From positions 1-64,000 of the IMG/VR virus record IMGVR_UViG_3300028797_000101: a DNA stretch of 64,000 bases. One strand, given 5' to 3'. Positions 3,386-64,000 of the stretch are shown in pieces; the first letter of the stretch is position 1; each line of letters begins with the position of its first letter. Below the pieces are notes generated by a model that was not told where the DNA came from, did not search any database, and saw only the letters and a program-made list of their open reading frames with translations. The position numbers were made by a program, and so were the translations under genes. The stretch is from a virus. Taxonomy: Duplodnaviria > Caudoviricetes.

Positions 3386-6300
3386 ATGAATCCATCTGGC
3401 AAAGTAAAATTCGTGTACGTAGAGGGAGAAAATCTTCCATCAACTGTCGATGATTCGACGATGTACATTGTAGGCACAACTCCAAAAACATTATACATAG
3501 GATCAGATGCTATCGGTGGCGGTACAGATCTCAGCCAGGACATCATTTCATTAAATAATAGTGATGATCTGGAAGGTAAAATTTCATTCTATGCCTCGGG
3601 TGATCTGTCGGTACCTACAGAAACAGTAGACAATCTACCATTGAAGGATTCCTATGCTGATTTGTTTACATATGAGTTAAATGTAAAAGACGCTACAATC
3701 ACTTCAGAAACCGAGCCAATTGACACCAGCAGTTTCTATGAAGATTATAATTTGCAGATAACTCATACAATAACAGTATATGATCCCGCTGATCAAAGTG
3801 ATCCATATGCGGAGGAAACTATTCCTTATTCGGTCCCAGAACTTGTAAATTTGCACAGGTACAATTGTAAGTATCTTGAAAATGCAGATCCATACATGTA
3901 CTACTACTACTTCACAGATGAAGCTAATTCTGTTTTATATGAAGCTTGGTCAAAAGAAGTACCATTAGCAGTAGATAGCTTAGGTGACGATTCATACGGT
4001 CAACTAGTTTCCTACGATTATGATAATGTATCTGTAAATGTTGTTGATTTTTCTGATCTCTCAAATACAGATATTGTATTATTCATTGATGGGGAGCGAT
4101 CAGATCATAATGACTTTCCTTTAGTGTCATTAGATCCAACCATTAAAACTAACATAATCAAATATGATAGTACCGATTCAAGTTCAGAAACCGCTATCGT
4201 CAGCCACTTAAAATTCATAGATGATACATTCTATGAGAAAAAATCATATGGTATTTTTGTAGATTTCATTCATGGATTCATGGGAGAAAAATATTTGATT
4301 TTCCCTATTTGGAACAATATGTTTGAGGAGTCTATTAGAGGAAATAGATTCATCAAAGGTGCTGTAACTCCATTAGTAGAAGGAGAATTTGCAGTATTTG
4401 AATATAACACCAGCTTCCTTATATATTCAGATTTCGCTGATGTAACTTATAAAGGTTCGTATTATTGCTTTGATCCAACCCGGAACCATCAAAGACTTCT
4501 AGTGGAACAGAATCCGCTAGGTAACAAATATCCGGCATCATATCTATACTACAATACGTTATCTGTTGATGAAACTGCATCTTCAGAAGAAATAGCAAAT
4601 CAATATCTACATGTAGAATTTTCCAAGAACGGATTATTTTACAATAAAGATTCTAAAGAATTATCATCACAAGATATAACTAATGCCCTGGAATATACTC
4701 CTGCTGATAGTGCATTATTAGGTAAAAGATTAAGTTACAACGGAATAACTTTTGCAGATGGTAGCACAAATCCAAATCGCTATCCAAACATCAAAATAAA
4801 TTATAAACAATTTGCATTTGATCCGGTTGCTAAGATTTATCCAGCTATTGCACCATATTATGTAGAGCAAGTAGAGTCTCTTAATAGAATTGGATCATAT
4901 ATACGTTGTGATGATGGATTTTCTTATGGCTATACACTTGTCTCGTTTGGTGACGAATTTTATGATTCTTCTTCTGGTACTTATAAGAAGATGCAAATTA
5001 CTTGTCCCTATAATAATAAGAAATACAGCTATCACTATGCTGCCGAATCAACTTATTATAGTAGCTGGACTAGTGAAATTTACAGTAATAAGGTCTTAGT
5101 TGCAATAGAAGAATACGATCCGGAATATGGTAGTGACAGACAATATATTTATTATTTGGAACCTGCACAAGATTCATCTAATGATCAATTGATAAAACTA
5201 GAAGTAACCGAAGACGATACAGATTTCTATGTTGATTTCAATGGAACGCGACAAACTAGTGGATATGTTATCCTTACTGATTATAATGAGGGTTATTATG
5301 TTAGAAGCTATGAATTATTTGATAATGTATCAGATGGTTTAGCATACGCTAAATACTATTATGATCATGCACTCCCTCTTCAAGACATTCATCAAAGAAT
5401 AAATACTATATATCCTGGATTTTATATTGATATCCATAAAAGAGAATTATATCTAATGGATTTCATGGAGTCCTATAATGGTAGATCTTTTGAAGTTGGA
5501 TACAATAGAGAACAACTTTATTGGTATCAATCTACAGCTAGTAATGATCCCGATCACCCTCAGTATAGCGCGTCTGCTACTCCTGAATCAGGGAAGCCGA
5601 TTTTCTATACTAGACCTCGATCTATTTGGAAGCCTTATACAATCACCTCAGCATCGGAGGGAGATTTAGTAATCAAGCCTCATTATGATGAACAGCCTAC
5701 TGCTTATACTATATTTTTTGCAGGATTTGTAGGACAATATGGAGATATATATCAAAAAGCAAGTTTGAAATTTGATTATTATAGTGGAAGCTACGCTCCT
5801 ATTGAAGAGACAACATTGATTAGAGAAAAAATCAATGATATGGATAGCGCTACTAAAGAATATGTAGATGAGGAAATTGCGAGTCATGCCTATACACTTC
5901 CCATCGCATCAGCTTCAACACTTGGTGGCGTTAAGATTGGAGATAATCTCTCTATCGACGAGAATGGTGTACTTTCCGGAGAGGATCCAATTCAAGTTTC
6001 AACTATGCCTGAACCTACTTCAGAGTTAGCAGGAAGAGTAGTTCAGTACATTGGAGTAACTAACGCCAATTACACTAATGGGTACTTCTACAAGTGTGAG
6101 AAGAATCCTGATGGACCTACTCCTGGATCTTATGAAGGTCCTGATGGAAATATCTATCCTTATAAGCTAGTGATTGCTGATTCTGGGCTTGGTGGTGGAC
6201 CTTATACTTTCTTTAGTATGTATCCATTTATATTCTGTGAGGAGAATACAGGCACCTCTGATGGAAGGAAGTATTATGTGCTTTTAACAGGTGCTAGACA

Positions 6301-6817
6301 TGCATCGCCTGAGTCATCGGTTACATGTTTGAGTGGTATAGAAACAACTAGTAATTCAAAGACTATTAGTTTGTCTGATCTTTATCCTCAATCCTCGAGC
6401 TACATAATGAATAACTCAACTGTTAAGGGCTACTATAATAATAATCAGAATTTTCCATATAATTGGACTACTTCTATATTAGCTACTAATGTATCTGGAT
6501 TGGCTGTGCCTATTATTCAGACTAAGGCTGCTGCTTATGCTTATGCATTTGCTGATCCGTATATTTGGACACAAGTAGATACACAAGATGCTTATGTATT
6601 ACCAACCGCGGATTCTTCTACCCTTGGTGGCGTTAAAGTAGGTGATGGTTTGTCTATTGATGGAAGTGGTGTGCTTTCTGTAAATACGTATCAAGAAATT
6701 ATAGATGCTAGAACTGGTGTAGATGGTACAACTTATGCCGATTTAGGAACAGCTATAAGATCTCAGATTAGTGATTTAGCCAGTGGAGTTATTGCAGCGC
6801 TAAATGCTAATTACTAA
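3386..6817 (+). CDS. Large fibre/adhesin-like virion protein (1143 aa)
   Basis: Two YxLPxAxxSTLGGVKxGDxLSIDxxGVLS fibre repeats, ATKEYVD motif and EIIDARTG motif; N-terminus shared with 52268; preceded by the ACCTT motif. Confidence 0.65.
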   Translation: MNPSGKVKFVYVEGENLPSTVDDSTMYIVGTTPKTLYIGSDAIGGGTDLSQDIISLNNSDDLEGKISFYASGDLSVPTETVDNLPLKDSYADLFTYELNVKDATITSETEPIDTSSFYEDYNLQITHTITVYDPADQSDPYAEETIPYSVPELVNLHRYNCKYLENADPYMYYYYFTDEANSVLYEAWSKEVPLAVDSLGDDSYGQLVSYDYDNVSVNVVDFSDLSNTDIVLFIDGERSDHNDFPLVSLDPTIKTNIIKYDSTDSSSETAIVSHLKFIDDTFYEKKSYGIFVDFIHGFMGEKYLIFPIWNNMFEESIRGNRFIKGAVTPLVEGEFAVFEYNTSFLIYSDFADVTYKGSYYCFDPTRNHQRLLVEQNPLGNKYPASYLYYNTLSVDETASSEEIANQYLHVEFSKNGLFYNKDSKELSSQDITNALEYTPADSALLGKRLSYNGITFADGSTNPNRYPNIKINYKQFAFDPVAKIYPAIAPYYVEQVESLNRIGSYIRCDDGFSYGYTLVSFGDEFYDSSSGTYKKMQITCPYNNKKYSYHYAAESTYYSSWTSEIYSNKVLVAIEEYDPEYGSDRQYIYYLEPAQDSSNDQLIKLEVTEDDTDFYVDFNGTRQTSGYVILTDYNEGYYVRSYELFDNVSDGLAYAKYYYDHALPLQDIHQRINTIYPGFYIDIHKRELYLMDFMESYNGRSFEVGYNREQLYWYQSTASNDPDHPQYSASATPESGKPIFYTRPRSIWKPYTITSASEGDLVIKPHYDEQPTAYTIFFAGFVGQYGDIYQKASLKFDYYSGSYAPIEETTLIREKINDMDSATKEYVDEEIASHAYTLPIASASTLGGVKIGDNLSIDENGVLSGEDPIQVSTMPEPTSELAGRVVQYIGVTNANYTNGYFYKCEKNPDGPTPGSYEGPDGNIYPYKLVIADSGLGGGPYTFFSMYPFIFCEENTGTSDGRKYYVLLTGARHASPESSVTCLSGIETTSNSKTISLSDLYPQSSSYIMNNSTVKGYYNNNQNFPYNWTTSILATNVSGLAVPIIQTKAAAYAYAFADPYIWTQVDTQDAYVLPTADSSTLGGVKVGDGLSIDGSGVLSVNTYQEIIDARTGVDGTTYADLGTAIRSQISDLASGVIAALNANY

Positions 6818-35929: not shown

Positions 35930-37093
35930 ATGGGTTACAGTTCATTAGTTTCTTACATAAAGCTAAGTCCAAATAAAAACAGCCCTCGAAACCATAAGAT
36001 TGATTCTGTAGCTATTCACTGTATGGCAGGGAATCTATCTGTAGAGACTTGTGGAGATTTGTTTGCTAATCCAGAAAGAAAAGCGTCGTCAAACTATGGA
36101 ATTGGTTCAGATGGTAGGATTGCTCTTTATGTAGATGAAAATGATAGATCCTGGTGTACATCTTCTGGTGGTGTAGATCATAGGGCAATCACAATAGAAG
36201 TCGCTAACAGCAGTATTGGTGATCCATGGCCTGTTTCTGATGCTGCGTATCAATCTCTTTTGAATCTTCTAACTGACATATGTAGAAGGAATCAGATATC
36301 TTCGCTAAGATGGATGGCCAATAAAGCGTATGCTGTTACAGCAGCTAACGGAGGTCCGGTAGATCAGCAAAACATGTTTGTACATAGATGGTTTGCTGCA
36401 AAAGCATGTCCAGGTGACTATCTTTACAACGCACATGGTGCAATTGCTACAGAAGTAAACAGACGTCTTGCATCAGGAGCTCCTATCACTCCAGTAGTTT
36501 CTACTGCAGCTCCTACCGTAGCTATTGATAGGTCTAAACTGAGACCATATGTCCCTATTCTAGATAGAGACTCACCAACTCCTAATTACTCTCAATTTTA
36601 TGCAAACGGTGTAGTAGGTGCGATTGTAGAAGCTGGATATCAGTTTACATCTGCACACATTCGTGTTGAAAACTTCAGAAATCCTAAGGCCTACGATCAG
36701 GTTCAAGCTCTTATCTCTGTGAGACTTCCCTTCGGCTACTACATGATAGCAAGAGCACAAAATTTATCGGAAGTTAGAGAGGAAATGTATCAGCTATCAT
36801 TTCTGGTAAGAAAATACTCTCCAGGGCTTGGTGTGTGGTTGCAATTAGATCTTCCTAAAAATCAACCAGATATAAATGATAATATCTTAAACGCATATAA
36901 GACATATCTCATAAAATTAGGTCTTGTAGGTAAGATAGGAATATATGCTGATAGCAGTACAATCAAAAGTATCAACTGGAGCAAGCATTATCACGAATGG
37001 CTTCTGTGGTATGTAGATAGAGTTTCTGGAGTTGGTCAATTATCTACTGTATTTGACTCTTCGTTCTTCGCTATGTCAGGGAGGTACACATAA
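35930..37093 (+). CDS. Virion-associated N-acetylmuramoyl-L-alanine amidase (Amidase_2) plus GH25-like barrel
   Basis: IHC...ASSNY.IG.DG...RSW.....D..AITIE...HRWF..KACPG. Confidence 0.8.
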   Translation: MGYSSLVSYIKLSPNKNSPRNHKIDSVAIHCMAGNLSVETCGDLFANPERKASSNYGIGSDGRIALYVDENDRSWCTSSGGVDHRAITIEVANSSIGDPWPVSDAAYQSLLNLLTDICRRNQISSLRWMANKAYAVTAANGGPVDQQNMFVHRWFAAKACPGDYLYNAHGAIATEVNRRLASGAPITPVVSTAAPTVAIDRSKLRPYVPILDRDSPTPNYSQFYANGVVGAIVEAGYQFTSAHIRVENFRNPKAYDQVQALISVRLPFGYYMIARAQNLSEVREEMYQLSFLVRKYSPGLGVWLQLDLPKNQPDINDNILNAYKTYLIKLGLVGKIGIYADSSTIKSINWSKHYHEWLLWYVDRVSGVGQLSTVFDSSFFAMSGRYT

Positions 37094-38763
37094 TGGCGTT
37101 TATAGGCTACACTGATACAGACTCCTTAAAAGCTCATGTGCTTTCTGCAAGACAATGGTGGACTAAGGGAACATACAATGATTGTATATTAGGAAACAAC
37201 GCAAATATTGATAGGCCTTGGATAGGTAGTGTACTTCCGAACTGCACAGGCTACGCTTATGGAAGATTCTCAGAGATCCTGCAGAAGAATGCAAAGCTTC
37301 CTATCAGCGATGCTGGTACTTGGTACGCTAATGTTAAAGGTTATGAAAAGGGAAGTAAGCCGAAGATTGGTGCTGTTGCTGTTTGGACAAAACCGGGAGC
37401 TGCCGGTCATGTTGCTATCGTAGAGAAGATAAATGTAGATGGTTCTATTGTGCTTTCTGAAAGTGGATGGTCTGCGTCTAAGATATGTTGGACTTCTGTT
37501 CAGCAGCCACCTAACTACTACAAAGCTCCTTATCAGCTACAAGGATTTATCTACAATCCTCATGTAAATCTAAATAACAAAGTTTATGATTTCTTGAAAG
37601 AAGCTTCAAAGCATGTTGGCGAAGATGGTACATGGACCTGGAAAACTACAGGAATGATTGCAGGAGCTCCTTGGGCAGCAGGATTTATTCTTGCCGTAGG
37701 CAGAACAGTAGGCGATATAATCGACAAAGTTATATTCAACTCAGCTGGTGCAGGAGAGATGGCCAGAGGTGGAGTAGTAAATGGATTAGGAAGATGGATA
37801 AGAGGACCTCATCATGGGCCGTCTTATGTAGTCACTCCAAATCCAGGAGATCTAATACTGTATAGATGGAAGCCTGCAATGAGTTACACGCAAGCCGATG
37901 AATATGTTTCTGATCACATAGGAATTGTTTATCAAGCAGAGAATCAAGTAGTGTATACTATAGAAGGAAACAACGGAGGTATCTGTAAACTTACATCGCA
38001 TAGTATCTCAGATACAACTATCAACGGCTACTATAGACCGTACTGGGAGAGGATTGGCGGGTCGGCAAATGGATATGCTTCTGATGGACTAGAGATGGCT
38101 GTAAGTATGGCCTACAGAGTATTTACATCCGATGACATGACATTGAGGGAAGTGGGTTACATGACAACCAACGCACAACCTTCTATACAATCAACAGGAA
38201 TTCGTCTTGCGGTGATAAATTACACAGATGCATTAGCATCGCTCATCAATGCATATGGTCAGACTGTTGCAGGTGGAGAGATAGTAATAGACGGTGGAGC
38301 TCAAGCAGTTAACATCAACTTACTTTCCAACAACAATGCTAAGATAATCGGTCAGTTTCTTCTAAGCAAAGGAATGAATATTTCACAGGTAGTCGGATTT
38401 CTCGCTAACATACAAGCAGAGTCAAGCTACAGTCCTGCCGCAGTGAATTCTCGTTCAGGAGCTAGTGGAATTTGTCAGTGGTTAGGAAGTAGAAAAACTG
38501 CAATGATAAAAGCCTGCGGAGCTGAATGGAAAACAAATCTTTCTGGGCAGCTGAATTTTATCTGGACAGAGCTAAACAGTACTGAGAAGAATACATGGAA
38601 TCTCTTGCAATCAAGGATTACATCCATTAGTCAATCAGCTGCTGAGGATGCTGCAGAGCTCATAACACGATACTATGAAAGACCCGGTAACTATGATTCA
38701 TCTGTGCCACCACGCAGAGCAATCGCTGCTAGCATCTGGAAACAGATACTTGTCGTCAATTAG
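37093..38763 (+). CDS. Tail lysin: CHAP + degenerate CHAP + phage tail lysozyme
   Basis: NCTGYA.GR...GHVAIVE; second domain PWAAGF...DHIGIV...TIEGN; C-terminal ANIQAES...GICQW...YERP. Confidence 0.8.
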   Translation: MAFIGYTDTDSLKAHVLSARQWWTKGTYNDCILGNNANIDRPWIGSVLPNCTGYAYGRFSEILQKNAKLPISDAGTWYANVKGYEKGSKPKIGAVAVWTKPGAAGHVAIVEKINVDGSIVLSESGWSASKICWTSVQQPPNYYKAPYQLQGFIYNPHVNLNNKVYDFLKEASKHVGEDGTWTWKTTGMIAGAPWAAGFILAVGRTVGDIIDKVIFNSAGAGEMARGGVVNGLGRWIRGPHHGPSYVVTPNPGDLILYRWKPAMSYTQADEYVSDHIGIVYQAENQVVYTIEGNNGGICKLTSHSISDTTINGYYRPYWERIGGSANGYASDGLEMAVSMAYRVFTSDDMTLREVGYMTTNAQPSIQSTGIRLAVINYTDALASLINAYGQTVAGGEIVIDGGAQAVNINLLSNNNAKIIGQFLLSKGMNISQVVGFLANIQAESSYSPAAVNSRSGASGICQWLGSRKTAMIKACGAEWKTNLSGQLNFIWTELNSTEKNTWNLLQSRITSISQSAAEDAAELITRYYERPGNYDSSVPPRRAIAASIWKQILVVN

Positions 38764-43073: not shown

Positions 43074-43955
43074 TTGAAGGATATAGTATCCGCATCGAAA
43101 TCAATAGGATTACAACAAAATGTACTTATAAGGATAATAGATCCGGTAACAGGCGATGTAGTTCAAGAGCATCAGGGTCATAACTGTGCGACCAATTCTG
43201 CACTTGTCGGTATTGGACATTATCTTACAGGTGATGGAGTCTTTAATCAGGGCTATGATATGTTGAGTAGATACATTCCTCAGTACATATCTTTAGGTAC
43301 AATGGGTCTTTACACTCAGGAAGAAGATGCTGAAGGACTTCCGTCAGGTATTGGAGTAAACACAACTCTTTCAGAAGTTGATAATTTCAAAAGATATGTA
43401 GCCGAAAGACCTGGATACGGAGCTGACGGGTATGATCCTAATCAGAACAACAATCGTCCGTATTTAGGAATTGGCCCGGTGTTTTCAGATAGACCAGATA
43501 GCACAAAGACCGTAAATTGTGAATTGATCGATGTATCGTTTCCCAGGGCTAAGGTATCTTTCAGAGATATTGTACCGGAGACACAATCGGAAGTTCCCAA
43601 GACGATTGATGTCGTGTTTAGTGCAATGATATCAACAGGAGCTTTAAGAACATTTCGTGAAACTGGGAAAGATTACATATTTATAACTGAAGCAGGTCTT
43701 TGGTCTAAACCTGTTTGGGAGTCAAGTGGAGAGAATGGTTTAATTGCAGCTTATAGAATACTTCCTACAGATGAGGATAACTGGGACATGGAAGATCCTG
43801 AAAACAGAGATCTTCTCAAGAGAAGCATACTAAAAGTAGGGCTGAATCAAGTAGTTCAAGTTATTTGGAAGTTTCAGCTAGGCAGCAAAGATGAACTCGG
43901 TGGATATGATCCAATTCCTATACATTATGAAAATGCAGACATAGTTAGGTACTAG
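43074..43955 (+). CDS. Baseplate/fibre-attachment protein
   Basis: HN..T...YI.LGT...ITEAGL...AY....K......W.. pattern; TTG start after AGGAG. Confidence 0.55.
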   Translation: MKDIVSASKSIGLQQNVLIRIIDPVTGDVVQEHQGHNCATNSALVGIGHYLTGDGVFNQGYDMLSRYIPQYISLGTMGLYTQEEDAEGLPSGIGVNTTLSEVDNFKRYVAERPGYGADGYDPNQNNNRPYLGIGPVFSDRPDSTKTVNCELIDVSFPRAKVSFRDIVPETQSEVPKTIDVVFSAMISTGALRTFRETGKDYIFITEAGLWSKPVWESSGENGLIAAYRILPTDEDNWDMEDPENRDLLKRSILKVGLNQVVQVIWKFQLGSKDELGGYDPIPIHYENADIVRY

Positions 43956-43966
43956 GAGGAACACAT

Positions 43967-44308
43967 ATGAATTCAACATTGTTATTTACACCTGCAGCGC
44001 TCATGGATCTGTTAACACAGATTGAAGAGCTCAAGGACAAAGAGATCGAGATAAATGAAAGTTCAGATGGATCTATTTCCTTGAAAATAGGTGAGTCTAC
44101 TTACAACATAGATTCATCTGATGCAACTGAACTTGCAGCTGATGAAGATACGGTAGATGCTGTAGATGAAATAAATATGGAAGCATATGAAGAGGTGCAG
44201 GACAAATCAGATGCAGATGAACCTGTTACGTCTGGAATTCTTAAAGAGATGGTTAAATCACTCATGCTTGGCGGCATGATTCGGCTTTCTAAAAAATTAT
44301 TAGATTAA
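43967..44308 (+). CDS. Acidic head-module protein
   Basis: Directly upstream of the protease; contains PVTSG site. Confidence 0.55.
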   Translation: MNSTLLFTPAALMDLLTQIEELKDKEIEINESSDGSISLKIGESTYNIDSSDATELAADEDTVDAVDEINMEAYEEVQDKSDADEPVTSGILKEMVKSLMLGGMIRLSKKLLD

Positions 44309-44320
44309 GGAGTGATAGAG

Positions 44321-45724
44321 ATGAAAGATTCAAAGATCAAAGCAGATGTAGCTCTCAATGCGAAGCCTCTTGCTATCTTAGGCGAGTACGCAGGTGAATG
44401 TGCAGATGCAAATATCACTAACAAGAATGGTCTTGATATCACAAGGCCTGTGTGGGAAGGTGTATTTGCATCGGAGGAGTACAACGAAGGCATCAAAAAT
44501 GGTCATTACATCGGGTTCCTCGGACATCCTGAAGATCCAAACTGCATGGATTTCGAGCATGGATGTATTGTGATGACAGAAGGTCACATTGATCCAGATG
44601 GAAAGGTTCAAGGCAAATTCAACCTTGTTAACACGCCTGTAGGTCAGATTGTAAAAACTTTTATAGACGCAGGAGTTAAATTCGGCATATCTGTTAGAGG
44701 TGCTGGTGACATTGTAGACAATTCCGTAGATCCTGATACGTTTGTATTCAGAGGATTTGACCTTGTAGCGTTTCCTGCATATCCTAACTCCATTCCTACT
44801 TTCACAGAGATAGCCGCGTCTACAGACGCTGTTCAGCAAAAGAAATATCAAGCGGTTTGTGCTGCGGTAACAAAAAACTTAGATACACTTAACAAGACTG
44901 AGGTAGATGTTATCCAGGCTAATTTCGCAAAGCAGTCCAAGGAATATGCTGCACTTGAAACCAGAAAGAAAGTTTTAGCGGGTGAGCAAGTAGAAGTAAC
45001 ATCAGAGGCTGCAGAAGCTGTAGTTGCTTCTCAAAAGCTCGACGCTGTAACAGCTCTTTATCTAGAAGCACAGAAAAAGAATAAAGTTTTGCAGTCTGAA
45101 AACATCCATCTTCGTCAGCTACTGAAGACAATAAAATCTGCAGATAGCAGAAAGATCGACAGCTTGAATCGCATAACAGCTGCTCAAATGAGAGACATGG
45201 ATCAAGCTCTTGCAGATGCAGCTAGTAGAACAAAGAAAGCTGTACTGAGCAATCATTCTTTATCCAAAGATCTAGCAGACGTGACAAAGCGTCTTAAGTC
45301 TGCTGAAGATACTAACCTTAAATATAGTCAGAAGATCGAAGCCAACACTCAAATTATTCTGGAAAAGGATTCTATCATTTCTAAGCTTCAATCAAACTTA
45401 TCTGAAACTGTCAGAAAGGCCAATGATGCAGAAGCTAAGACATCAAACTGTGATGCACAGATAGCGAGCCTTCAACGAAAGATCGAGGCTGCACAAGCTC
45501 TCGTAGATGAGTATCAGAACGCATATGCACAGATTTATGCAAATGCAATTGGTGTAGGTCTAGAACACGTTTCTGTAACAGCAACAACGACTGTTTCAGA
45601 ACTCCAACAGATCATAAAGGGATCCTCCAAGTACACTTCTGGAGCGCAAGAAGCTGTTTTAGCTTCGGCACAAATCTCCGAAATAGGTACAGACATGGAT
45701 GACTCTTCCCTCATCACGTTGTAA
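44321..45724 (+). CDS. Prohead protease (T4 gp21-like) fused to coiled-coil scaffold
   Basis: N.NG, GFLGHP (His), GISVRGAG (Ser), FDLVAFPA (Asp); C-terminal ~300-aa coiled coil. Confidence 0.9.
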   Translation: MKDSKIKADVALNAKPLAILGEYAGECADANITNKNGLDITRPVWEGVFASEEYNEGIKNGHYIGFLGHPEDPNCMDFEHGCIVMTEGHIDPDGKVQGKFNLVNTPVGQIVKTFIDAGVKFGISVRGAGDIVDNSVDPDTFVFRGFDLVAFPAYPNSIPTFTEIAASTDAVQQKKYQAVCAAVTKNLDTLNKTEVDVIQANFAKQSKEYAALETRKKVLAGEQVEVTSEAAEAVVASQKLDAVTALYLEAQKKNKVLQSENIHLRQLLKTIKSADSRKIDSLNRITAAQMRDMDQALADAASRTKKAVLSNHSLSKDLADVTKRLKSAEDTNLKYSQKIEANTQIILEKDSIISKLQSNLSETVRKANDAEAKTSNCDAQIASLQRKIEAAQALVDEYQNAYAQIYANAIGVGLEHVSVTATTTVSELQQIIKGSSKYTSGAQEAVLASAQISEIGTDMDDSSLITL

Positions 45725-45750
45725 ATAATATATAAAGGAGAAAACGTATT

Positions 45751-47277
45751 ATGAGTATCACGAAAACTATTCATCCCTCTAGCAGACGTCCTGTTGCAAG
45801 CAACAGCCGCCCTGTTATGGCTAGTTCCAATGTTGGTGCTGCACGTCGTCCTGTAGCTCCTACCAATCGTCCTGCATCCGCTATTACAGCCGGTGTTCGT
45901 ACTCGTCAGCAGAGCCCTATTTCGGCTGCTATTTCTAAGCTGTCTCCTGAGAAGCAGATCTTCGCTCGTCAGCTGCAGGCAAATATGAATCGTCAGGCAC
46001 GTACCATCACTGCTGCTACCAACACGACCAACATCATGGCTCGCCCGGATTTCATGGAGCTGCTGCCTATGTTCGTTCAGAAGCTGCTTATCCTGGACGT
46101 TTATGGTTCCGTAGCAATGAAGTCCCGTCAGCAGTTGATTCCTTACTTCAAGTTCATCGCTGAGAACACTAAGGGTGAGACGAAGGCCGGTGACATCCTC
46201 TCCAGTCCTTTCGTAAATCGTCAGGGTGTTGATCCTAACTTCACCAGCAAGACCATCAAGAATGAGGTAATTGCTGAAGGCACCGATATCACCGACAACT
46301 TGACCGTTGTTTACACTCCTGTACTTCCTGGTTCCGTAACCATCAAGTATGTAGCTTCCGGCGTTACTACCGCACTTGTTGATGACGGTAACGGCAACAT
46401 CGTTGAGGCAGGTTCTACTACTACCGCAGGTGTTATCAATTACAGCACCGGTTCCATCAGCTTCGTGAACGGTGTGCTTACTCCTGCAGCAGGCAACAGC
46501 GTTTCTGCAACTTATCAGTACGACAACGAGAACGTAGGTCCTAGAACTCCTGGCAATGGCGGTTATGGTTACGAGTACGGCGCACAGATGGCTAAGGGCT
46601 ACTTGCAGCTGGATGAGATCAACATGGTAGCTGAAGCTCACGAGCTTGCTTGCTACTGGAGCATCTTCTCCGCATTCGCAGCACAGCAAGAGTACGGCTC
46701 CAACGTAGGCGACATCGCGAAGGAAGCTGCTTTCTCTGAACTCACTGCTGAAATCAACACCGATGGCTTCCAGCGTCTGCTCCAGGCTGCATCCTACAAG
46801 CCTCAGTTCAACTGGGATGCATCTCCTGTACTTACCGGTTCTGTTGTTCCTTCCGATTACCTGAACATGTTCAAGCTTAAGCTCACTCAGGCAGCTGCTT
46901 CCATTTATCAGGCAACCAGATTAACGCAGCCTAACAAGCTGATCGTTGGTTCCAACGTAGCTTCTTACATCAGCATGATCAACGGATTTGTTGCACAGGG
47001 CGCAGCAGAGAACGTAGGTCCTTACAAGGCAGGTAAGCTGGATCAGTTCGACATCTATGTAGATCCTAACTACAATCCGGATACTTGGGTAATGGCTTGC
47101 AAGTCTAACGACATCAGACGTAATACCGCTCTCTTCGGCGAGTACATGCCTCTGACGAGTACCGATGCGGTAGGTTTGGCCAATAGCTCGGTACAGCAGG
47201 GTTACGCTACGATGTATGGTATGAAGATCGTAAATCCTGACACCGTTGTATCCGGTAAGATTCTCGGCACATTCTAA
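45751..47277 (+). CDS. Major capsid protein (T4 gp23-like)
   Basis: M.S....I.Y.KF, L...WS.....G.......ELTAEIN, GPYKAGKL....IY.DP, YMPL, G.AT.YG.K.VN; strong codon bias; follows protease. Confidence 0.9.
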   Translation: MSITKTIHPSSRRPVASNSRPVMASSNVGAARRPVAPTNRPASAITAGVRTRQQSPISAAISKLSPEKQIFARQLQANMNRQARTITAATNTTNIMARPDFMELLPMFVQKLLILDVYGSVAMKSRQQLIPYFKFIAENTKGETKAGDILSSPFVNRQGVDPNFTSKTIKNEVIAEGTDITDNLTVVYTPVLPGSVTIKYVASGVTTALVDDGNGNIVEAGSTTTAGVINYSTGSISFVNGVLTPAAGNSVSATYQYDNENVGPRTPGNGGYGYEYGAQMAKGYLQLDEINMVAEAHELACYWSIFSAFAAQQEYGSNVGDIAKEAAFSELTAEINTDGFQRLLQAASYKPQFNWDASPVLTGSVVPSDYLNMFKLKLTQAAASIYQATRLTQPNKLIVGSNVASYISMINGFVAQGAAENVGPYKAGKLDQFDIYVDPNYNPDTWVMACKSNDIRRNTALFGEYMPLTSTDAVGLANSSVQQGYATMYGMKIVNPDTVVSGKILGTF

Positions 47278-49655: not shown

Positions 49656-50096
49656 ATGCGCAATAATAGAAGACACTATCGCGTAGTTGCTGATGAACTC
49701 ATTGATGAGAATCTTGATCAGATCGACGCTATGCCAGATGATGTAGAAGATGTTGCAGATGATGCACAGGTTGACGTAGCACCTGAAGCTTCCGAGCTCT
49801 TGTTCGAAGCTGAAGATGTTGCAGAGCTGCTTGCAGAAGTAACCGGAGACGATGTAGAGGTAACCGTAGATGAGGATTCCGTTAAGTTTACAGTTGGCGA
49901 TGTAGATTACACCGTAGCTGCAGAAGGTGACGAGGAGATCCTTGAGAGTTCTCGCATCTACAACAAGAAGAGTATCAAGGCGTCTGTTCGCAGACCCGTA
50001 AAGTCCTCTACTCAGGCAGCGCCTAAGCGTGCTGTTGCAAGACCTGCTGCTCCCGCACAGAAGCCTGTTCGTAGAGTATCTCGCACAACTCGCTAA
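49656..50096 (+). CDS. Acidic/basic core or scaffold-like protein
   Basis: Acidic body, basic tail RRPVKSS resembling the capsid leader; VVAD, IKAS sites. Confidence 0.55.
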   Translation: MRNNRRHYRVVADELIDENLDQIDAMPDDVEDVADDAQVDVAPEASELLFEAEDVAELLAEVTGDDVEVTVDEDSVKFTVGDVDYTVAAEGDEEILESSRIYNKKSIKASVRRPVKSSTQAAPKRAVARPAAPAQKPVRRVSRTTR

Positions 50097-52267: not shown

Positions 52268-53458
52268 ATGAATCCTTCAGGAAATGTACAATTTGTTTAT
52301 GTAGTAGGTGATGTATTGCCTGAGGAGGTAGATGATTCTACCATCTACATTGTAGGTACAGAAAAGAAATCTATCTACGTAGGGTCAGAACTCATTGTAT
52401 CTGACCTTACTGGAGACATTGAAACAATTGAAGAACAAATTGGCAATAATACTTTAGGTACTAGCGTTCCAAAGTATGACGTGTCGTTTACAGATCACAC
52501 CTATTCAGCTAGTAACGGTAGTACGGATGGCACCATTACTATTACACAAGAAGCTATTTATGCGCCTAATGATACTGGTGAGCACCATCAACAGATTCCG
52601 GCTGTTTCTTTTACACCTAAAGTGGGTGGATGGGATGAAGTTGTAGCTTCCATTCCTAAATCGTATTATACCGCTACTGCTAATTCATCTATGGGTAATA
52701 AATCTGATAGTACCCGAAATAACTTTAACTTATTATCATATGCCTTTCTCAATAATACTAAAAGTAATAACACGATTATTGGAAAAATAGATTATGGGTA
52801 CAGTGTGAAGGCATTTTCAAGTAGCGCATCAATTATTTTACAGTGTTATTTAGGTAATAACAGTATTTTATACAAAAACATACCTGTAACTAGCACTGGT
52901 CATGTTTATGAAACTGAAATGATTATGACTCAGGCTAATCAATTAAGTGAAAACGGTGTAGCGTACATTGGAATAACGTCATATAATTGCACCATAACTG
53001 GATGCGATGGTACCGTGTATTTATACGCAGGTAATTTAAGTGGACATACAAATTATGTAGAAATGGACGATTTTGATGAATGGACTGCAACTGGAAACGT
53101 ACAATGCAGTTATCAGTCAATGTACGGGGGATGGTTAATTACTACAGACAATGCAAGTCCTGCAAGTTGTAAATTAACTAAAACATTTAATGTTGAGGGC
53201 GATAGAGATTATACGCTAATTATAGATACAATGATGTGTGACGGTGTAAGCGGTTATGCAAGTATAGAAATGGAAGATTTAAGCGTTGGAGCAACTTCAT
53301 ATCCACCAGTAAAAATAGACACAAATAATCAAGGTGGTTTTAGAACTTATCTTACAACTAATGAAGAAGCTACTCAAATGAAAATTACCATTGACTTAAG
53401 TAATGTTTACACCACAGGTACGGCTATGTTCCTGTTAAATAAAATGTATCTTGCTTAA
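52268..53458 (+). CDS. Fibre/adhesin-like protein, N-terminal paralogue of 3386
   Basis: MNPSGNVQFVYV.G..LP..VDDST.YIVGT..K..Y.GS; beta-rich C-terminus. Confidence 0.6.
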   Translation: MNPSGNVQFVYVVGDVLPEEVDDSTIYIVGTEKKSIYVGSELIVSDLTGDIETIEEQIGNNTLGTSVPKYDVSFTDHTYSASNGSTDGTITITQEAIYAPNDTGEHHQQIPAVSFTPKVGGWDEVVASIPKSYYTATANSSMGNKSDSTRNNFNLLSYAFLNNTKSNNTIIGKIDYGYSVKAFSSSASIILQCYLGNNSILYKNIPVTSTGHVYETEMIMTQANQLSENGVAYIGITSYNCTITGCDGTVYLYAGNLSGHTNYVEMDDFDEWTATGNVQCSYQSMYGGWLITTDNASPASCKLTKTFNVEGDRDYTLIIDTMMCDGVSGYASIEMEDLSVGATSYPPVKIDTNNQGGFRTYLTTNEEATQMKITIDLSNVYTTGTAMFLLNKMYLA

Positions 53459-54400: not shown

Positions 54401-55777
54401 GGCGTACCTTTGGAGGATCCTCCGTCAGCCACTTTTCAAATATTAAAGAAAGGAGAATAACATGGCTACATATTGTGTACAGAGTAATGTAATCAGAGGA
54501 TTGAGCAAAGAACAGTATGACGTACTTCGAGAAATGTGCAGATATTCTAATAATCTATACAATGTTGCACTTTATAACATTCGTCAACATTATTTCAACA
54601 CAAAGCAATTTTTAAACTACGAAGGCAACTATCACGAATGTAAGACGAATGAAAATTATAAGCTTTTGCAGGCAGGAATATCACAGCAGATAATGAAAGT
54701 TGTAGACAGAAGTTTCAAATCTTTCTTCAATCTGATTAAGAAATGTAAACTTGGAGATTACAGATATCACGATGTCAATATTCCACATTATAGACCTAAA
54801 GGCGGAATGTTTAATCTGATAATGTCTACAAATGCTCTTGTAGTGAAAAATGGATATCTATATGTTCCAATGAGTAGGAATTTCAGAACTTTGCACCCAG
54901 GTATGAAAGAAATCAAGATTGCATTTCCGGAAAGATTGACAGACAAGATTATTAAAGAAGTTCGCATCTTACCTTTTAACAATGGTCGTTACTTCAAGAT
55001 ACAATATGTATATGAAGTTGAACAAGAAGATGCCTACGTTGACAAGAATAATATTCTGTCAATAGATCTAGGTGTGGACAATCATGCTACTTGTGTTTCA
55101 ACTGTTGGGACACCGTTCATTATGGAAGGTCGTAAACTCAAATCAATCAACCATCAGTGGAACAAAGAATTAGCAAGACTTCGTTCTATTTCTATGAAAC
55201 AGAAATTAAAGACCACAAATCGGATACAGAATATCACAACAAAGCGAAACAATCGAGTCAATGATATTATCAAGAAGTCAGCAAGATACATAATCAACTA
55301 CTGTATCAAAAACAGTATTGGTACGCTCATTGTAGGCTACAGTGTTGATTTCAAAAGATATTCTAACATCGGTAAAGTTAACAATCAGAACTTTGTCCAG
55401 ATACCTTTAGGTGATCTTCGGCAACAACTTGAATTCCTTTGTTGGAAGTATCATATAGATTACATTAAACAAGAAGAAAGTTACACTTCTAAAAGCAGCT
55501 TTCTAGATAAAGATGTGCTTCCGGAGTACAAAGCAGAACAGCCGTATGAAGGTACATTCAGTGGTAAGCGCATAAAAAGAGGACTATACCAATCAAAGAA
55601 CGGTACAATCCTTAATGCTGATGTAAACGGGGCAGCTAATATCTTAAGAAAATGTAAGCAGAATGTCGATTTCGATAGACTGTGTAAAGGGCTTTTGGCG
55701 AGTCCAGTAAGAATAAGGATATCTTAAGTATCAAACTTCTTATGAATCCTATCAGCTTTAGCCGATGGGTACGTCAA
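54401..55777 (+). mobile_element. TnpB-only IS200/IS605-family (IS1341-like) element
   Basis: Follows TTAT; left hairpin GGAG-GATC-CTCC; right end GAATCC...GCTTTAGC...GGG.ACGTCAA; removal restores ATG GAA ATG ACT in frame with 55782. Confidence 0.8.
54462..55727 (+). CDS. tnpB: RNA-guided endonuclease TnpB
   Basis: NLYN, SIDLGVDN (RuvC-I), QEESYTSK, RGLY, NADVNGA.NI (RuvC-III). Confidence 0.92.
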   Translation: MATYCVQSNVIRGLSKEQYDVLREMCRYSNNLYNVALYNIRQHYFNTKQFLNYEGNYHECKTNENYKLLQAGISQQIMKVVDRSFKSFFNLIKKCKLGDYRYHDVNIPHYRPKGGMFNLIMSTNALVVKNGYLYVPMSRNFRTLHPGMKEIKIAFPERLTDKIIKEVRILPFNNGRYFKIQYVYEVEQEDAYVDKNNILSIDLGVDNHATCVSTVGTPFIMEGRKLKSINHQWNKELARLRSISMKQKLKTTNRIQNITTKRNNRVNDIIKKSARYIINYCIKNSIGTLIVGYSVDFKRYSNIGKVNNQNFVQIPLGDLRQQLEFLCWKYHIDYIKQEESYTSKSSFLDKDVLPEYKAEQPYEGTFSGKRIKRGLYQSKNGTILNADVNGAANILRKCKQNVDFDRLCKGLLASPVRIRIS

Positions 55778-56735: not shown

Positions 56736-56831
56736 ATGGAAGAAAAGACAGATGTTGAAATTCCCGAAGTTGAAGTTGAAATTCCTGCAGAGATGCTTGA
56801 GGAATTTGAAAATGCGAAAGGAGACGATTGA
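56736..56831 (+). CDS. Acidic 31-aa peptide upstream of the endolysin
   Basis: SD GAGGAGG; MEEKTDVEIPEVEVEIPAEMLEEFENAKGDD*. Confidence 0.6.
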   Translation: MEEKTDVEIPEVEVEIPAEMLEEFENAKGDD

Positions 56832-56833
56832 TA

Positions 56834-58378
56834 ATGGGTTACACTAATAGTCCCTTAGTGTCGTATGTAGCTCTCAGCCCGAATCATTCAGGTCAGAGAG
56901 TTCACGTTATCGACAGAATTACTCCACACTGCGTAGTAGGTCAAGCTACTGTGGAGAGACTTGGTCAGATATTTGCGCCCACTTCTAGAAAGGCAAGCTG
57001 TCAATATGGTATCGGTGTAGATGGGCGTGTAGGAATGTACGTAGAAGAAAAGAACAGATCTTGGTGCACTTCGTCTAACGCAAATGATCAGAGAGCTGTT
57101 ACAATTGAATGCGCATCGGACAATACTCATCCATACGCAATGAATGCATCGGTGTACACTACACTTGTTAACTTATGTGTAGATATCTGTAGCAGAAACG
57201 GGAAGAATCAGCTGTTGTGGATAAGCGATAAGAACAAGGCTCTGGCGTATGAGCCTAAGTCGAATGAGATGCTCCTTACTGCTCACAGATGGTTTGCTGC
57301 AAAAGCATGTCCCGGCGATTGGTTGTATTCTAGACTCGGAGATCTAGCTACAGCTGTAACCGCAAGGCTTGCAGGCAAATCAACAGACGATCAGGAATCC
57401 GGAACAATCGGAAATGTTCTCTATCGTGTGCAAGTAGGCGCATTTACATTTCAAGCGAATGCCGAACTCTTAAGAGAAACTCTCAGAGAAAAAGGATATG
57501 AGGCCATTGTTTCTAAGAACGGTGAATACTATCGTGTGCAAGTAGGCGCATTTAGAAACAAGCAGAATGCAACGGCTCTTGCAAACAAGTTAAGATTCGA
57601 TGGATATTCTCCATTCCTTGCAACTACAGGCGGCGTGAATGTCGGTAAAGATGCACTTCCGGCGGTTACCGGTACACCTACCACTGGATCTGATTCAGAT
57701 AATCAAGTGATCTGGAATTCGCTTATGGACTTCATAGGCAATGAATATGGTGTAGCAGGACTAATGGGCAACCTGTATGCAGAATCTAGCTTGAGATCTG
57801 ACAACCTTCAGAATTCTTATGAAGCTAAACTCGGATTCAACGATACAACGTATACACAGGCAGTAGATAGCGGTAACTACACTAACTTCGTTCATGACTC
57901 TGCTGGATACGGTTTAGCTCAGTGGACGTTCTGGAGCAGAAAAGAAAAGTATCTTGCATATGCGCAGAAGATGAAGAAGTCTATCGGAGATGGGCAGACA
58001 GCACTTGAATATCTGAAGATTGAGTTGTCTGAAAGCTATCCTTCTGTTGTTAGTACTCTGAAAGCTGCAACATCTGTTCAAGAAGCTTCTGATGTAGTGC
58101 TCGTTCAGTTTGAACGACCTGCTAATCAGAGCCAGAAGAATAAAGATCTCAGAGCTTCATATGGTCAAACATTCTATAACAGATATGCAACTCCTGAGGA
58201 GCCAAAAGAATCTGCTGCACCTGTATCCTCTGATAAGATTTACATTGTTAAGACTGGCGATACTTTGTCTAGAATCGCTAGCATGTATCATACAACCTAC
58301 GCAAAGTTAGCAGAGTATAACAATCTGCAAAATCCTAACAAGATCAGAGCTGGTCAGAAGATCAAAATTCCATCTTAA
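56834..58378 (+). CDS. Multidomain endolysin: Amidase_2 + 2x SPOR + phage lysozyme + LysM
   Basis: PHC...HRWFAAKACPG; YRVQVGAF twice; GNLYAES...GLAQWT...FERP; YIVKTGDTLS.IA...GQKIKIP. Confidence 0.88.
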   Translation: MGYTNSPLVSYVALSPNHSGQRVHVIDRITPHCVVGQATVERLGQIFAPTSRKASCQYGIGVDGRVGMYVEEKNRSWCTSSNANDQRAVTIECASDNTHPYAMNASVYTTLVNLCVDICSRNGKNQLLWISDKNKALAYEPKSNEMLLTAHRWFAAKACPGDWLYSRLGDLATAVTARLAGKSTDDQESGTIGNVLYRVQVGAFTFQANAELLRETLREKGYEAIVSKNGEYYRVQVGAFRNKQNATALANKLRFDGYSPFLATTGGVNVGKDALPAVTGTPTTGSDSDNQVIWNSLMDFIGNEYGVAGLMGNLYAESSLRSDNLQNSYEAKLGFNDTTYTQAVDSGNYTNFVHDSAGYGLAQWTFWSRKEKYLAYAQKMKKSIGDGQTALEYLKIELSESYPSVVSTLKAATSVQEASDVVLVQFERPANQSQKNKDLRASYGQTFYNRYATPEEPKESAAPVSSDKIYIVKTGDTLSRIASMYHTTYAKLAEYNNLQNPNKIRAGQKIKIPS

Positions 58379-63621: not shown

Positions 63622-64000
63622 ATGAGAATTTCTGTTAACAAACATACAGTGACAGCATCTCAGAGAATTGTAGCTGCAGATGAAGATAATCCATTTGAGG
63701 GAATGCAGGCAGACAAGGTCGAGGAGGACAACTTCGATACCTCTTTTGAATCTACTGAGGATGATGTAACAGATCAGTTAGACGACATATCTGATGATGT
63801 TGAAGACCTTCAGGACGCTTTATCTGATGTTCAGGAGGATGACACAAACATCGAGATAGACAACAACATCTCCGGACATTACATAGCTGAATGTGAGAGA
63901 TGTCATGGAATCTTTATTTCAGCTGTAACCGAATCTGATCAAACTGTCAAGAAAATAACCGGTGTGTGTCCTCTGTGTGACAGAGAGACAGATCAGTATT
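63622..64000 (+). CDS. Acidic Zn-ribbon protein with tag-like leader (3' truncated)
   Basis: MRISVNKHTVTASQRIVAADED...CERC...CPLC; open to window end; ACCTT motif upstream. Confidence 0.7.
   Translation, partial: MRISVNKHTVTASQRIVAADEDNPFEGMQADKVEEDNFDTSFESTEDDVTDQLDDISDDVEDLQDALSDVQEDDTNIEIDNNISGHYIAECERCHGIFISAVTESDQTVKKITGVCPLCDRETDQY

Follow-up and report, generated by a model that had tools for sequence, protein, structure and literature searches.

Introduction

The prohead protease of phage T4, gp21 (MEROPS family S77, structure 5jbl), cleaves after Glu in the motif (L/I)-x-E, a trait of the characterised members of its family. It starts with MNEPQLLIE↓T (arrows denote known or predicted cleavage positions throughout), and in the crystal structure, the active site is blocked by this N-terminal piece of 9 residues, which is presumably removed through self-cleavage (PMC9958956). 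The prohead proteases of phages phiKZ (gp175), 201phi2-1 and SPN3US (gp245) follow S/A/G-x-E and A-x-E rules (PMC5694885, PMC10052503). In the herpesviruses, pseudorabies virus pUL26 has a predicted R-site YLQA-T and a predicted M-site VQA-S; its assemblin cuts after Ala, and a conserved Leu110 follows the catalytic Ser109 (PMC4498786). Here, we investigated the prohead protease and its putative substrates in an uncultured phage (Caudoviricetes, IMG/VR record IMGVR_UViG_3300028797_000101) using the first 64 kb of its 159,304-bp genome, called the window for simplicity. An earlier note on this DNA had proposed that the cleavage site has shifted from (I/L)-x-E to [IV]-x-[AS], a triplet identical to the end of an N-terminal tag found on other proteins of the phage. 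This proposal is supported by the comparison of homologous cleavage sites, the split among related proteases, the enrichment of the motif in the scaffold and the tag itself. We conclude that the gp21-type protease of this clade has probably changed its preference at P1, the residue preceding the cut, from Glu to a small residue and would cleave after [IV]-x-[AS]; cutting would usually take place before Ser, Ala, Gly, Asn, Asp or Thr. Literature searches, phage G included, found no published non-Glu rule for a T4-type protease, many subscription papers being outside their reach.

Results

A gp21-type protease fused to a scaffold

Protease and scaffold are directly seen to be one polypeptide, the scaffold half of about 300 residues of coiled coil being fused C-terminally to the protease. 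The features of this gene and of the adjoining capsid gene are listed below, with protease residues numbered from the Met at 44321 as residue 1.

44321..45724, plus strand: fusion of prohead protease and coiled-coil scaffold, 467 amino acids from ATG 44321 (PF03420, phrog_207, Shine-Dalgarno sequence)
44321..44344, plus strand: predicted 8-residue N-terminal propeptide MKDSKIKA with I-K-A↓D end (likeness to the T4 gp21 plug)
44345..44818, plus strand: protease domain with gp21/assemblin fold (AlphaFold2 model and structure search)
44525-44527, 44690-44692 and 44759-44761, plus strand: catalytic His69, Ser124 and Asp147 (alignment)
44810..44818, plus strand: predicted protease/scaffold release site I164-A165-A166↓S167 ([IV]-A-A↓[SA] in 20/20 close relatives)
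44819..45721, plus strand: scaffold part with conserved [IV]-x-[AS] islands (alignment of relatives, shuffles)
45751-47277, plus strand: major capsid protein gene (T4 gp23 family), adjoining the protease-scaffold gene
45751..46014, plus strand: basic 88-residue capsid leader with reiterated [IV]-x-[AS] sites (121 homologues)
46006..46014, plus strand: predicted capsid maturation site I86-T87-A88↓A89 (conservation in homologues, MAFFT alignment)
46015..47277, plus strand: predicted mature capsid protein (Pfam PF07068 Gp23, 3.9e-18)
46033-46041, plus strand: I95-M96-A97, I-M-A↓R-P in the predicted mature N-arm (111/121 homologues)

The true start of the protease is ATG 44321, with the ribosome-binding site AAGGAGTG at 44308-44315 just upstream; GTG 44312, which the open reading frame lister took as the start, falls within this Shine-Dalgarno sequence. 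The protease-scaffold protein matched the Pfam family PF03420 (Peptidase_S77) at 28.8 bits (E=1.1e-6), above the curated cut-off of 27, and the head maturation protease family phrog_207 (5e-22). When the whole protein was searched against the PDB as one sequence, coiled-coil noise alone came up; a profile built from protease relatives matched 5jbl_A (E=1e-8). The AlphaFold2 model of the protease domain had a predicted local distance difference test score (pLDDT) of 90.5, and its best fold match in the PDB was T4 gp21 (5jbl; E 1.8e-6, template modelling (TM) score 0.65-0.69, root-mean-square deviation (rmsd) 1.6 Å over 138 columns). The next matches were the proteases of human cytomegalovirus, herpes simplex virus 2, pseudorabies virus, Kaposi's sarcoma-associated herpesvirus, Epstein-Barr virus and varicella-zoster virus (E 1e-3 to 6e-2, TM score 0.4-0.57), i.e. 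the model also matches the assemblin fold, but more weakly than gp21.

His69, Ser124 and Asp147 do not vary among 31 aligned relatives and correspond in the alignment to His85, Ser140 and the Asp of GVDAV in T4. The Ser-His-His triad of assemblins is not found, the third catalytic residue being the invariant Asp. We regard fold and catalytic triad as established; each actual cut we infer. The protein is a gp21-family member that resembles assemblin in two respects, the protease-scaffold fusion and, as predicted below, an aliphatic-x-Ala↓Ser rule. Judged by sequence, cleavage after Glu in (L/I)-x-E is not a trait that it has in common with the characterised S77 members.

Glu is replaced by Ala or Ser at three homologous positions

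A search of 1.84 billion representatives retrieved 91 close relatives of the protease, followed by a gap to a Glu-type outgroup. Among 138 protease representatives, the P1 residue after the domain is Ala, Ser or Gly in 83 (called A/S type) and Glu in 55 (Glu type). The comparison of cleavage positions drew on the cleavage triplets known or proposed for T4 and on the triplets found at the aligned places of Glu-type relatives. At three sites, the [LIVM]-x-E↓ of T4 and the Glu-type relatives is seen to be replaced by [IV]-x-[AS]↓, and we consider this positional homology the strongest evidence for the predicted change of specificity.

The first site lies at the end of the protease domain, which reads ..[IV]-A-A↓[SA]-[ST]-D in all 83 A/S-type representatives, with Ala, Ser or Gly at P1. 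In the alignment, 55/55 Glu-type representatives have [VIL]-x-E↓S at this position, and T4 gp21 has K-E-I-T-E↓S. The second site is the junction between leader and body of the capsid protein, for which 855 homologues were found at E<=1e-10. In 121 capsid homologues, conservation begins exactly at [IV]-[TM]-[AG]↓ATNTTNIMARPDF, and P1 of the junction is Ala or Ser in 114/121, with Gly (I-M-G↓A) among the remainder. The MAFFT alignment places R-T-I-T-A↓A-T-N-T-T of the window over E-H-M-T-E↓S-T-Q-T-S of Bacillus phage HSE3, R-A-L-L-E↓T-T-Q-A-S of Listeria phage LIS04 and L-L-E↓S-T-D of Streptococcus phage GXN1, all three being cultured Glu-type relatives. Ala89 is the predicted N-terminus of the mature capsid protein; the cut form would yield the semi-tryptic peptide ATNTTNIMAR and the uncut form the fully tryptic TITAATNTTNIMAR.

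The third site is the end of the predicted N-terminal propeptide of the protease. The relatives' proteases have IKS↓, VKA↓, INA↓, IVA↓, VEA↓ or ILA↓ at this place. Among the A/S-type proteases with an N-terminal extension (56), [IV]x[AS] is present in 38 and [ILVM]xE in 8, compared to 10 and 38, respectively, among the 54 Glu-type proteases with an extension.

Residues next to the catalytic Ser and His change with the site

Two neighbours of the catalytic residues are observed to co-vary with the type of site. The catalytic Ser is followed by a second Ser in 55/55 Glu-type proteases, as in T4 gp21, and by Val or Ile in 82/83 of the A/S type. The residue four positions after the catalytic His is Arg in 51/55 Glu-type proteases, with Arg88 of T4 aligning there; in the A/S type it is never Arg or Lys, and it is Pro in 69/83. 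The window enzyme carries Pro73 in place of the Arg and Val125 in place of the Ser. Loss of a basic residue and gain of a bulkier hydrophobic one by the catalytic centre would be expected for a pocket that switches from Glu to Ala or Ser. In the protease tree, where T4 is outermost, the A/S-type representatives group together in a single clade with a support of 98, set among several clades of the Glu type. Because the A/S clade is nested within Glu-type clades, the switch from Glu to Ala/Ser is derived and happened once.

A long-branched protease at the base of the A/S clade (P0233, 504 amino acids) has A-I-A↓S-S after the domain; its catalytic Ser is followed by Glu and its catalytic His by an acidic stretch. 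This protease may represent an intermediate.

The motif is enriched in scaffolds and capsid leaders

All motifs that the earlier note had listed for the two proteins were found again. The capsid leader contains PVAS (14-17), VMAS (22-25), VGAA (28-31), ITAG (45-48) and ISAA (57-60) and ends with ITA↓A (86-89), followed by ATNTTNI; the scaffold half contains IAAS, VVAS, IKSA, ITAA, IEAN, IEAA, IKGS, whose third place is Gly, and VLAS. The level expected by chance was set with composition-preserving shuffles. Enrichment of [IV]-x-[AS] was observed in the scaffold part (18 sites versus 9.4 +/- 2.4 expected, p=0.001) and in the leader (7 versus 3.5 +/- 1.5, p=0.03), and none was found in the mature capsid protein or the protease domain. 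When a small or polar residue at P1' was included, the scaffold had 14 sites versus 5.7, a number reached by 0/2000 shuffles. Glu-type motifs were not enriched in the window scaffold (z=0.26-0.95). As a positive control, T4 gp22 gave 16 [IL].E sites versus 5.6 (z=5.2), i.e. the known rule of T4 was recovered, and the scaffold of Bacillus phage HSE3 showed a Glu-type signature in the same test.

The relatives show the same pattern. In 80 A/S-type scaffolds, [IV].[AS] occurred 1.86 times as often as expected (above expectation in 79/80) and its four-residue form 2.88 times (80/80), while [ILVM].E (1.17x) did not exceed its reversed control E.[ILVM] (1.23x); the reversed form of [IV].[AS] was flat (1.06x) and K.A was depleted (0.65x), for which reason a K-x-A code was rejected for this clade. 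In 52 Glu-type scaffolds, [ILVM].E was at 1.71x (52/52 above expectation), [IV].[AS] at 1.03x and the four-residue form at 0.64x. Control patterns in the scaffolds of 19 relatives (adjacent, wider spacing, reversed, Glu-type) ranged between 0.87x and 1.33x, compared to 1.89x for [IV].[AS]. The conserved islands have their P1 residues at A181, A200, A287, A341, S354, A390 and A421 of the window protein, the sites being occupied in 10 to 19 of 20 relatives; V-T-A421↓T sits 46 residues ahead of a conserved acidic C-terminus, ..L[IV]TL.

The leaders of the 121 capsid homologues have a mean length of 71 amino acids and contain 4.6 sites versus 2.0 expected, with all 121 above expectation. These leaders are basic and have hardly any acidic residues, with a mean of 1.2 Asp plus Glu versus 13.8 Lys plus Arg. 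A47 is occupied in 117/121 and A59 in 71/121, and the leaders of the clade conserve three further [IV]-x-[AS] islands amid variable sequence.

Could proteins rich in Ala, Ser, Ile and Val have produced these sites by composition and chance? The window leader, with p=0.03 when taken alone, would allow this, as would four additional proteins discussed below, in which the motif was at chance level (p 0.19-0.54). The scaffold exceeds the composition-preserving shuffles, however, as do nearly all scaffolds and all leaders of the relatives; the control patterns are flat; and the sites are conserved by column within otherwise variable sequence. By z-score, the protease-scaffold protein ranks first among 164 proteins of the genome (2.86), and the Ala/Ser-rich tape-measure-like protein at 37093-38763 lies below expectation (z=-0.96), so the motif is denser here than in such a protein, a comparison that the earlier note had named as a possible refutation of its proposal. 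A compositional artefact was rejected after the shuffles, the control patterns and the tape-measure comparison, and composition combined with chance is an exceedingly improbable source of the pattern. Coiled-coil periodicity, tried as a separate source, covers only part of the enrichment, the reversed pattern being flat.

Glu cleavage and docking as alternative explanations

The leader also holds a candidate for the ancestral rule. If Glu specificity had been kept, a single cut after Glu67 (T-P-E↓K) would be made in the capsid protein, and the [IV]-x-[AS] islands would serve in binding or structure. Glu67 is kept in 104/121 homologues and would fit a phiKZ-like S/A/G/T-x-E rule, and cleavage after Glu is the rule for every T4-type or phiKZ-type protease characterised so far (PMC5694885). 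This residue is, however, replaced by Asp or Gln in some homologues and has Pro at P2. Its aligned counterparts in HSE3 and T4 are residues other than Glu, and the Glu sites of these two phages fall on I-T-A88 instead. At the two processing positions of the protease itself, none of 83 A/S-type representatives has a Glu; Glu-type motifs are not enriched in the window scaffold, and in the A/S-type scaffolds they do not exceed their reversed control; and the conserved Arg near the catalytic His is lost. Retention of Glu cleavage therefore appears very unlikely.

Alternatively, [IV]-x-[AS] might be a co-evolved docking or targeting motif, mediating scaffold-capsid contact or capsid targeting, with cuts being rare or taking place at other bonds. 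In favour of this are the shortness of the motif and its conserved copy I-M-A97 in the mature N-arm, and coiled-coil periodicity could add part of the enrichment ([IV]..[AS] 1.23-1.33x). A docking motif would nevertheless have to fall exactly on the cleavage triplet of T4 and the Glu-type relatives, where P3 is still hydrophobic and P1 alone has changed. The catalytic triad is conserved in full, the motif is enriched only in its proper orientation and spacing, and the residues by the catalytic Ser and His change together with the motif. We consider this explanation rather unlikely, and a changed P1 preference of the protease remains the reading that we follow below.

The putative cargo tag ends in the predicted cleavage triplet

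The tag MK[KR]Y[IV]x[ASC][SA] heads 25 proteins of the genome, ends in the same triplet as the predicted sites and recurs in relatives down to 57% capsid identity. Unrelated proteins thus have a common short N-terminal tag that ends in the predicted cleavage triplet, as is the case for the capsid targeting sequence of T4. There, such a tag is common to IPII and IPIII (PMC9958956), compared to about 25 tagged proteins here.

In Streptococcus phage GXN1 (PQ819873.1; 98803, 132585, 132841), three small proteins start with MRLV[KR]L[NT]E, and two of them directly follow the capsid gene. This start is a candidate for a small capsid-targeting tag ending in L-x-E.

Tags and leaders might also be cut by a host enzyme, either signal peptidase I or Prp, the Firmicute protease responsible for trimming ribosomal protein L27 and some capsid proteins of staphylococcal phages. 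A small residue at -1 and an aliphatic one at -3 do fit the -3/-1 rule of signal peptidases. The tags and leaders, however, are devoid of a hydrophobic signal-peptide core, they contain no Prp motif of the Phe-Phe-Ala type, and [IV]-x-[AS] changes in step with the clade of the phage's own protease. The probability of host processing is next to negligible.

Further predicted substrates

The earlier note had extended the rule to four additional proteins, starting at 43967, 49656, 61387 and 63622, as putative processed core proteins; this extension is supported in part. The motifs named for them are present (VTSG in 43967; VVAD, IKAS and VKSS in 49656; VASS, IQAD and IESA in 61387; VTAS and IVAA in 63622), and none of the four is enriched when shuffled one by one. 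Conserved sites in relatives speak for three of them.

43967..44308, plus strand: acidic protein of 113 amino acids just upstream of the protease, with V87-T88-S89↓G (44225-44233) before a conserved C-terminal helix
49656..50096, plus strand: acidic protein with predicted cleavable basic ends, ..RVVA12↓DE (49683-49691) and SIKA109↓S (49974-49982)
63622..64000, plus strand: acidic protein with a Cys-rich (CxxC) C-terminal part, extending to 64029, past the window

In the first protein, [IV]-[ET]-[SG]↓G-[IL]-[IL]-K-E is conserved in nearly all of 19 relatives, and its gene occupies the position that gp67/gp68, which are substrates of gp21, have in T4. In the second, both the N-terminal [KR][KR][IV]-x-A↓[DE] and the C-terminal [IV]-x-A↓S are conserved in 14 relatives, the latter being followed by RRPV[KS][AS] repeats that resemble those of the capsid leader. 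The N-terminus of the third reads MRISVNKHTVTA↓SQRIVA↓ADE; homologues exist in 5/5 related genomes, with N-terminal extensions of very different length that each end in [IV]-x-A, mostly followed by Ala and then acidic residues. The remaining candidate, 61387, is unsupported as a substrate: a partial homologue was found in only 1/5 related genomes, and the gene sits among helicase/resolvase genes.

Basic repeats of the RRPV[KSA][AS] type are common to the C-terminal tail of 49656 (49974-50093) and the capsid leader (45751-46014); they are conserved in relatives and vary in number. They may represent a common module yielding small basic peptides.

Some neighbouring genes deserve mention. The 293-residue protein at 43074-43955, between the tail and head genes, matches no family but is conserved in its GHN.ATNS core; the start MKDIVSAS was considered as a cleavage site and dropped, since relatives do not conserve this tag-like start. 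Two proteins of 1143 and 396 amino acids (3386-6817 and 52268-53458) are nearly identical in their first 30 residues (MNPSG.V.FVYV.G..LP..VDDST.YIVG) and probably represent paralogues that share an anchoring domain at the N-terminus. A transposase-like gene (54462-55727; phrog_506, 7e-39) lies between the neck/tail genes and the endolysin gene (56828-58378).

Discussion

Several observations weigh against a switch to [IV]-x-[AS] cleavage, in addition to the retained Glu67. The motif is loose, with about 2 occurrences per 100 residues across the proteome. The copy at I-M-A97 is conserved within the predicted mature capsid protein, so conservation alone is no proof of a cut; the copy would be a pseudo-site that is protected, or else an alternative place of cutting. 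About one third of the A/S-type proteases have no N-terminal extension, the propeptide has a pLDDT of about 57, and the model gives no sign that it docks into the active site. The roles assigned to Pro73 and Val125 in the S1 pocket are guesses from the alignment. Finally, the switch happened once, so the co-variation of these residues with the sites amounts to one evolutionary event and not to repeated independent evidence.

By analogy with T4 and herpesvirus pUL26, the following sequence of events can be envisaged. In the assembled prohead, the enzyme would first remove its own 8-residue N-terminal plug at I-K-A↓D and then release itself from the scaffold at I-A-A↓S. The scaffold would be cut at about eight conserved sites, and the 88-residue basic leader of the capsid protein would be shredded, leaving Ala89 as the mature N-terminus. 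In a last step, the 7-residue tag MK[KR]Y[IV]x[AS] would be trimmed from about 25 cargo proteins, as would the ends of 43967, 49656 and 63622.

The window protein has the fold (rmsd 1.6 Å) and the His-Ser-Asp triad of T4 gp21, a predicted short N-terminal plug ending in the putative cleavage triplet and another such triplet directly after the protease domain. As in T4 (gp22, gp23), the scaffold is saturated with sites and the capsid leader would be removed at a homologous place, and unrelated putative cargo proteins carry a short N-terminal tag with an MK.Y start and a triplet end. In contrast to T4, P1 is Ala or Ser instead of Glu, Pro and Val stand in place of Arg88 and Ser141, the proteins corresponding to gp21 and gp22 form one polypeptide, and the leader is strongly basic. 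The enzymes of phiKZ, 201phi2-1 and SPN3US are likewise gp21-related and self-processing and cut many head proteins or propeptides at a three-residue motif, with specificity drifting between relatives. Their variation, however, is at P3 and P1 stays Glu, whereas here P3 stays aliphatic and P1 changes.

With herpesvirus assemblin/pUL26 (MEROPS S21), the protein has in common a related fold, the fusion of a protease at the N-terminus to a scaffold at the C-terminus, a predicted release site directly behind the protease, a predicted site close to the scaffold's C-terminus, the predicted aliphatic-x-Ala↓Ser rule and a hydrophobic residue directly after the catalytic Ser. It differs from assemblin in its third catalytic residue (Asp instead of His) and is much closer to gp21 in both sequence and fold. 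Since the tree indicates that the Ala/Ser rule arose within Glu-type phage enzymes, the likeness to assemblin specificity looks convergent. We lean towards the broader view that, in a large clade of gut and rumen phages, the whole protease-substrate network was rewired: P1 switched from Glu to Ala/Ser as the Arg by the catalytic His was lost, the Ser next to the catalytic Ser became Val or Ile, and leader, scaffold, self-processing sites and about 25 tags followed, converging on the assemblin rule.

This would be a natural specificity switch for which two residues are candidate determinants and dozens of substrates have co-evolved, and it makes the joint change of a protease and its substrates testable. 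The functional gap between phage gp21 and herpesvirus assemblin is narrowed by a common architecture and a predicted Ala↓Ser rule, apparently through convergence. Scaffold motif enrichment, which recovered the rule of T4, can be used to read the specificity of head proteases in uncultured phages. For a clade with >850 capsid homologues in metagenomes, the rule predicts the mature ends of capsid, scaffold and cargo proteins, and it flags small proteins that are probably packaged and delivered into the host.

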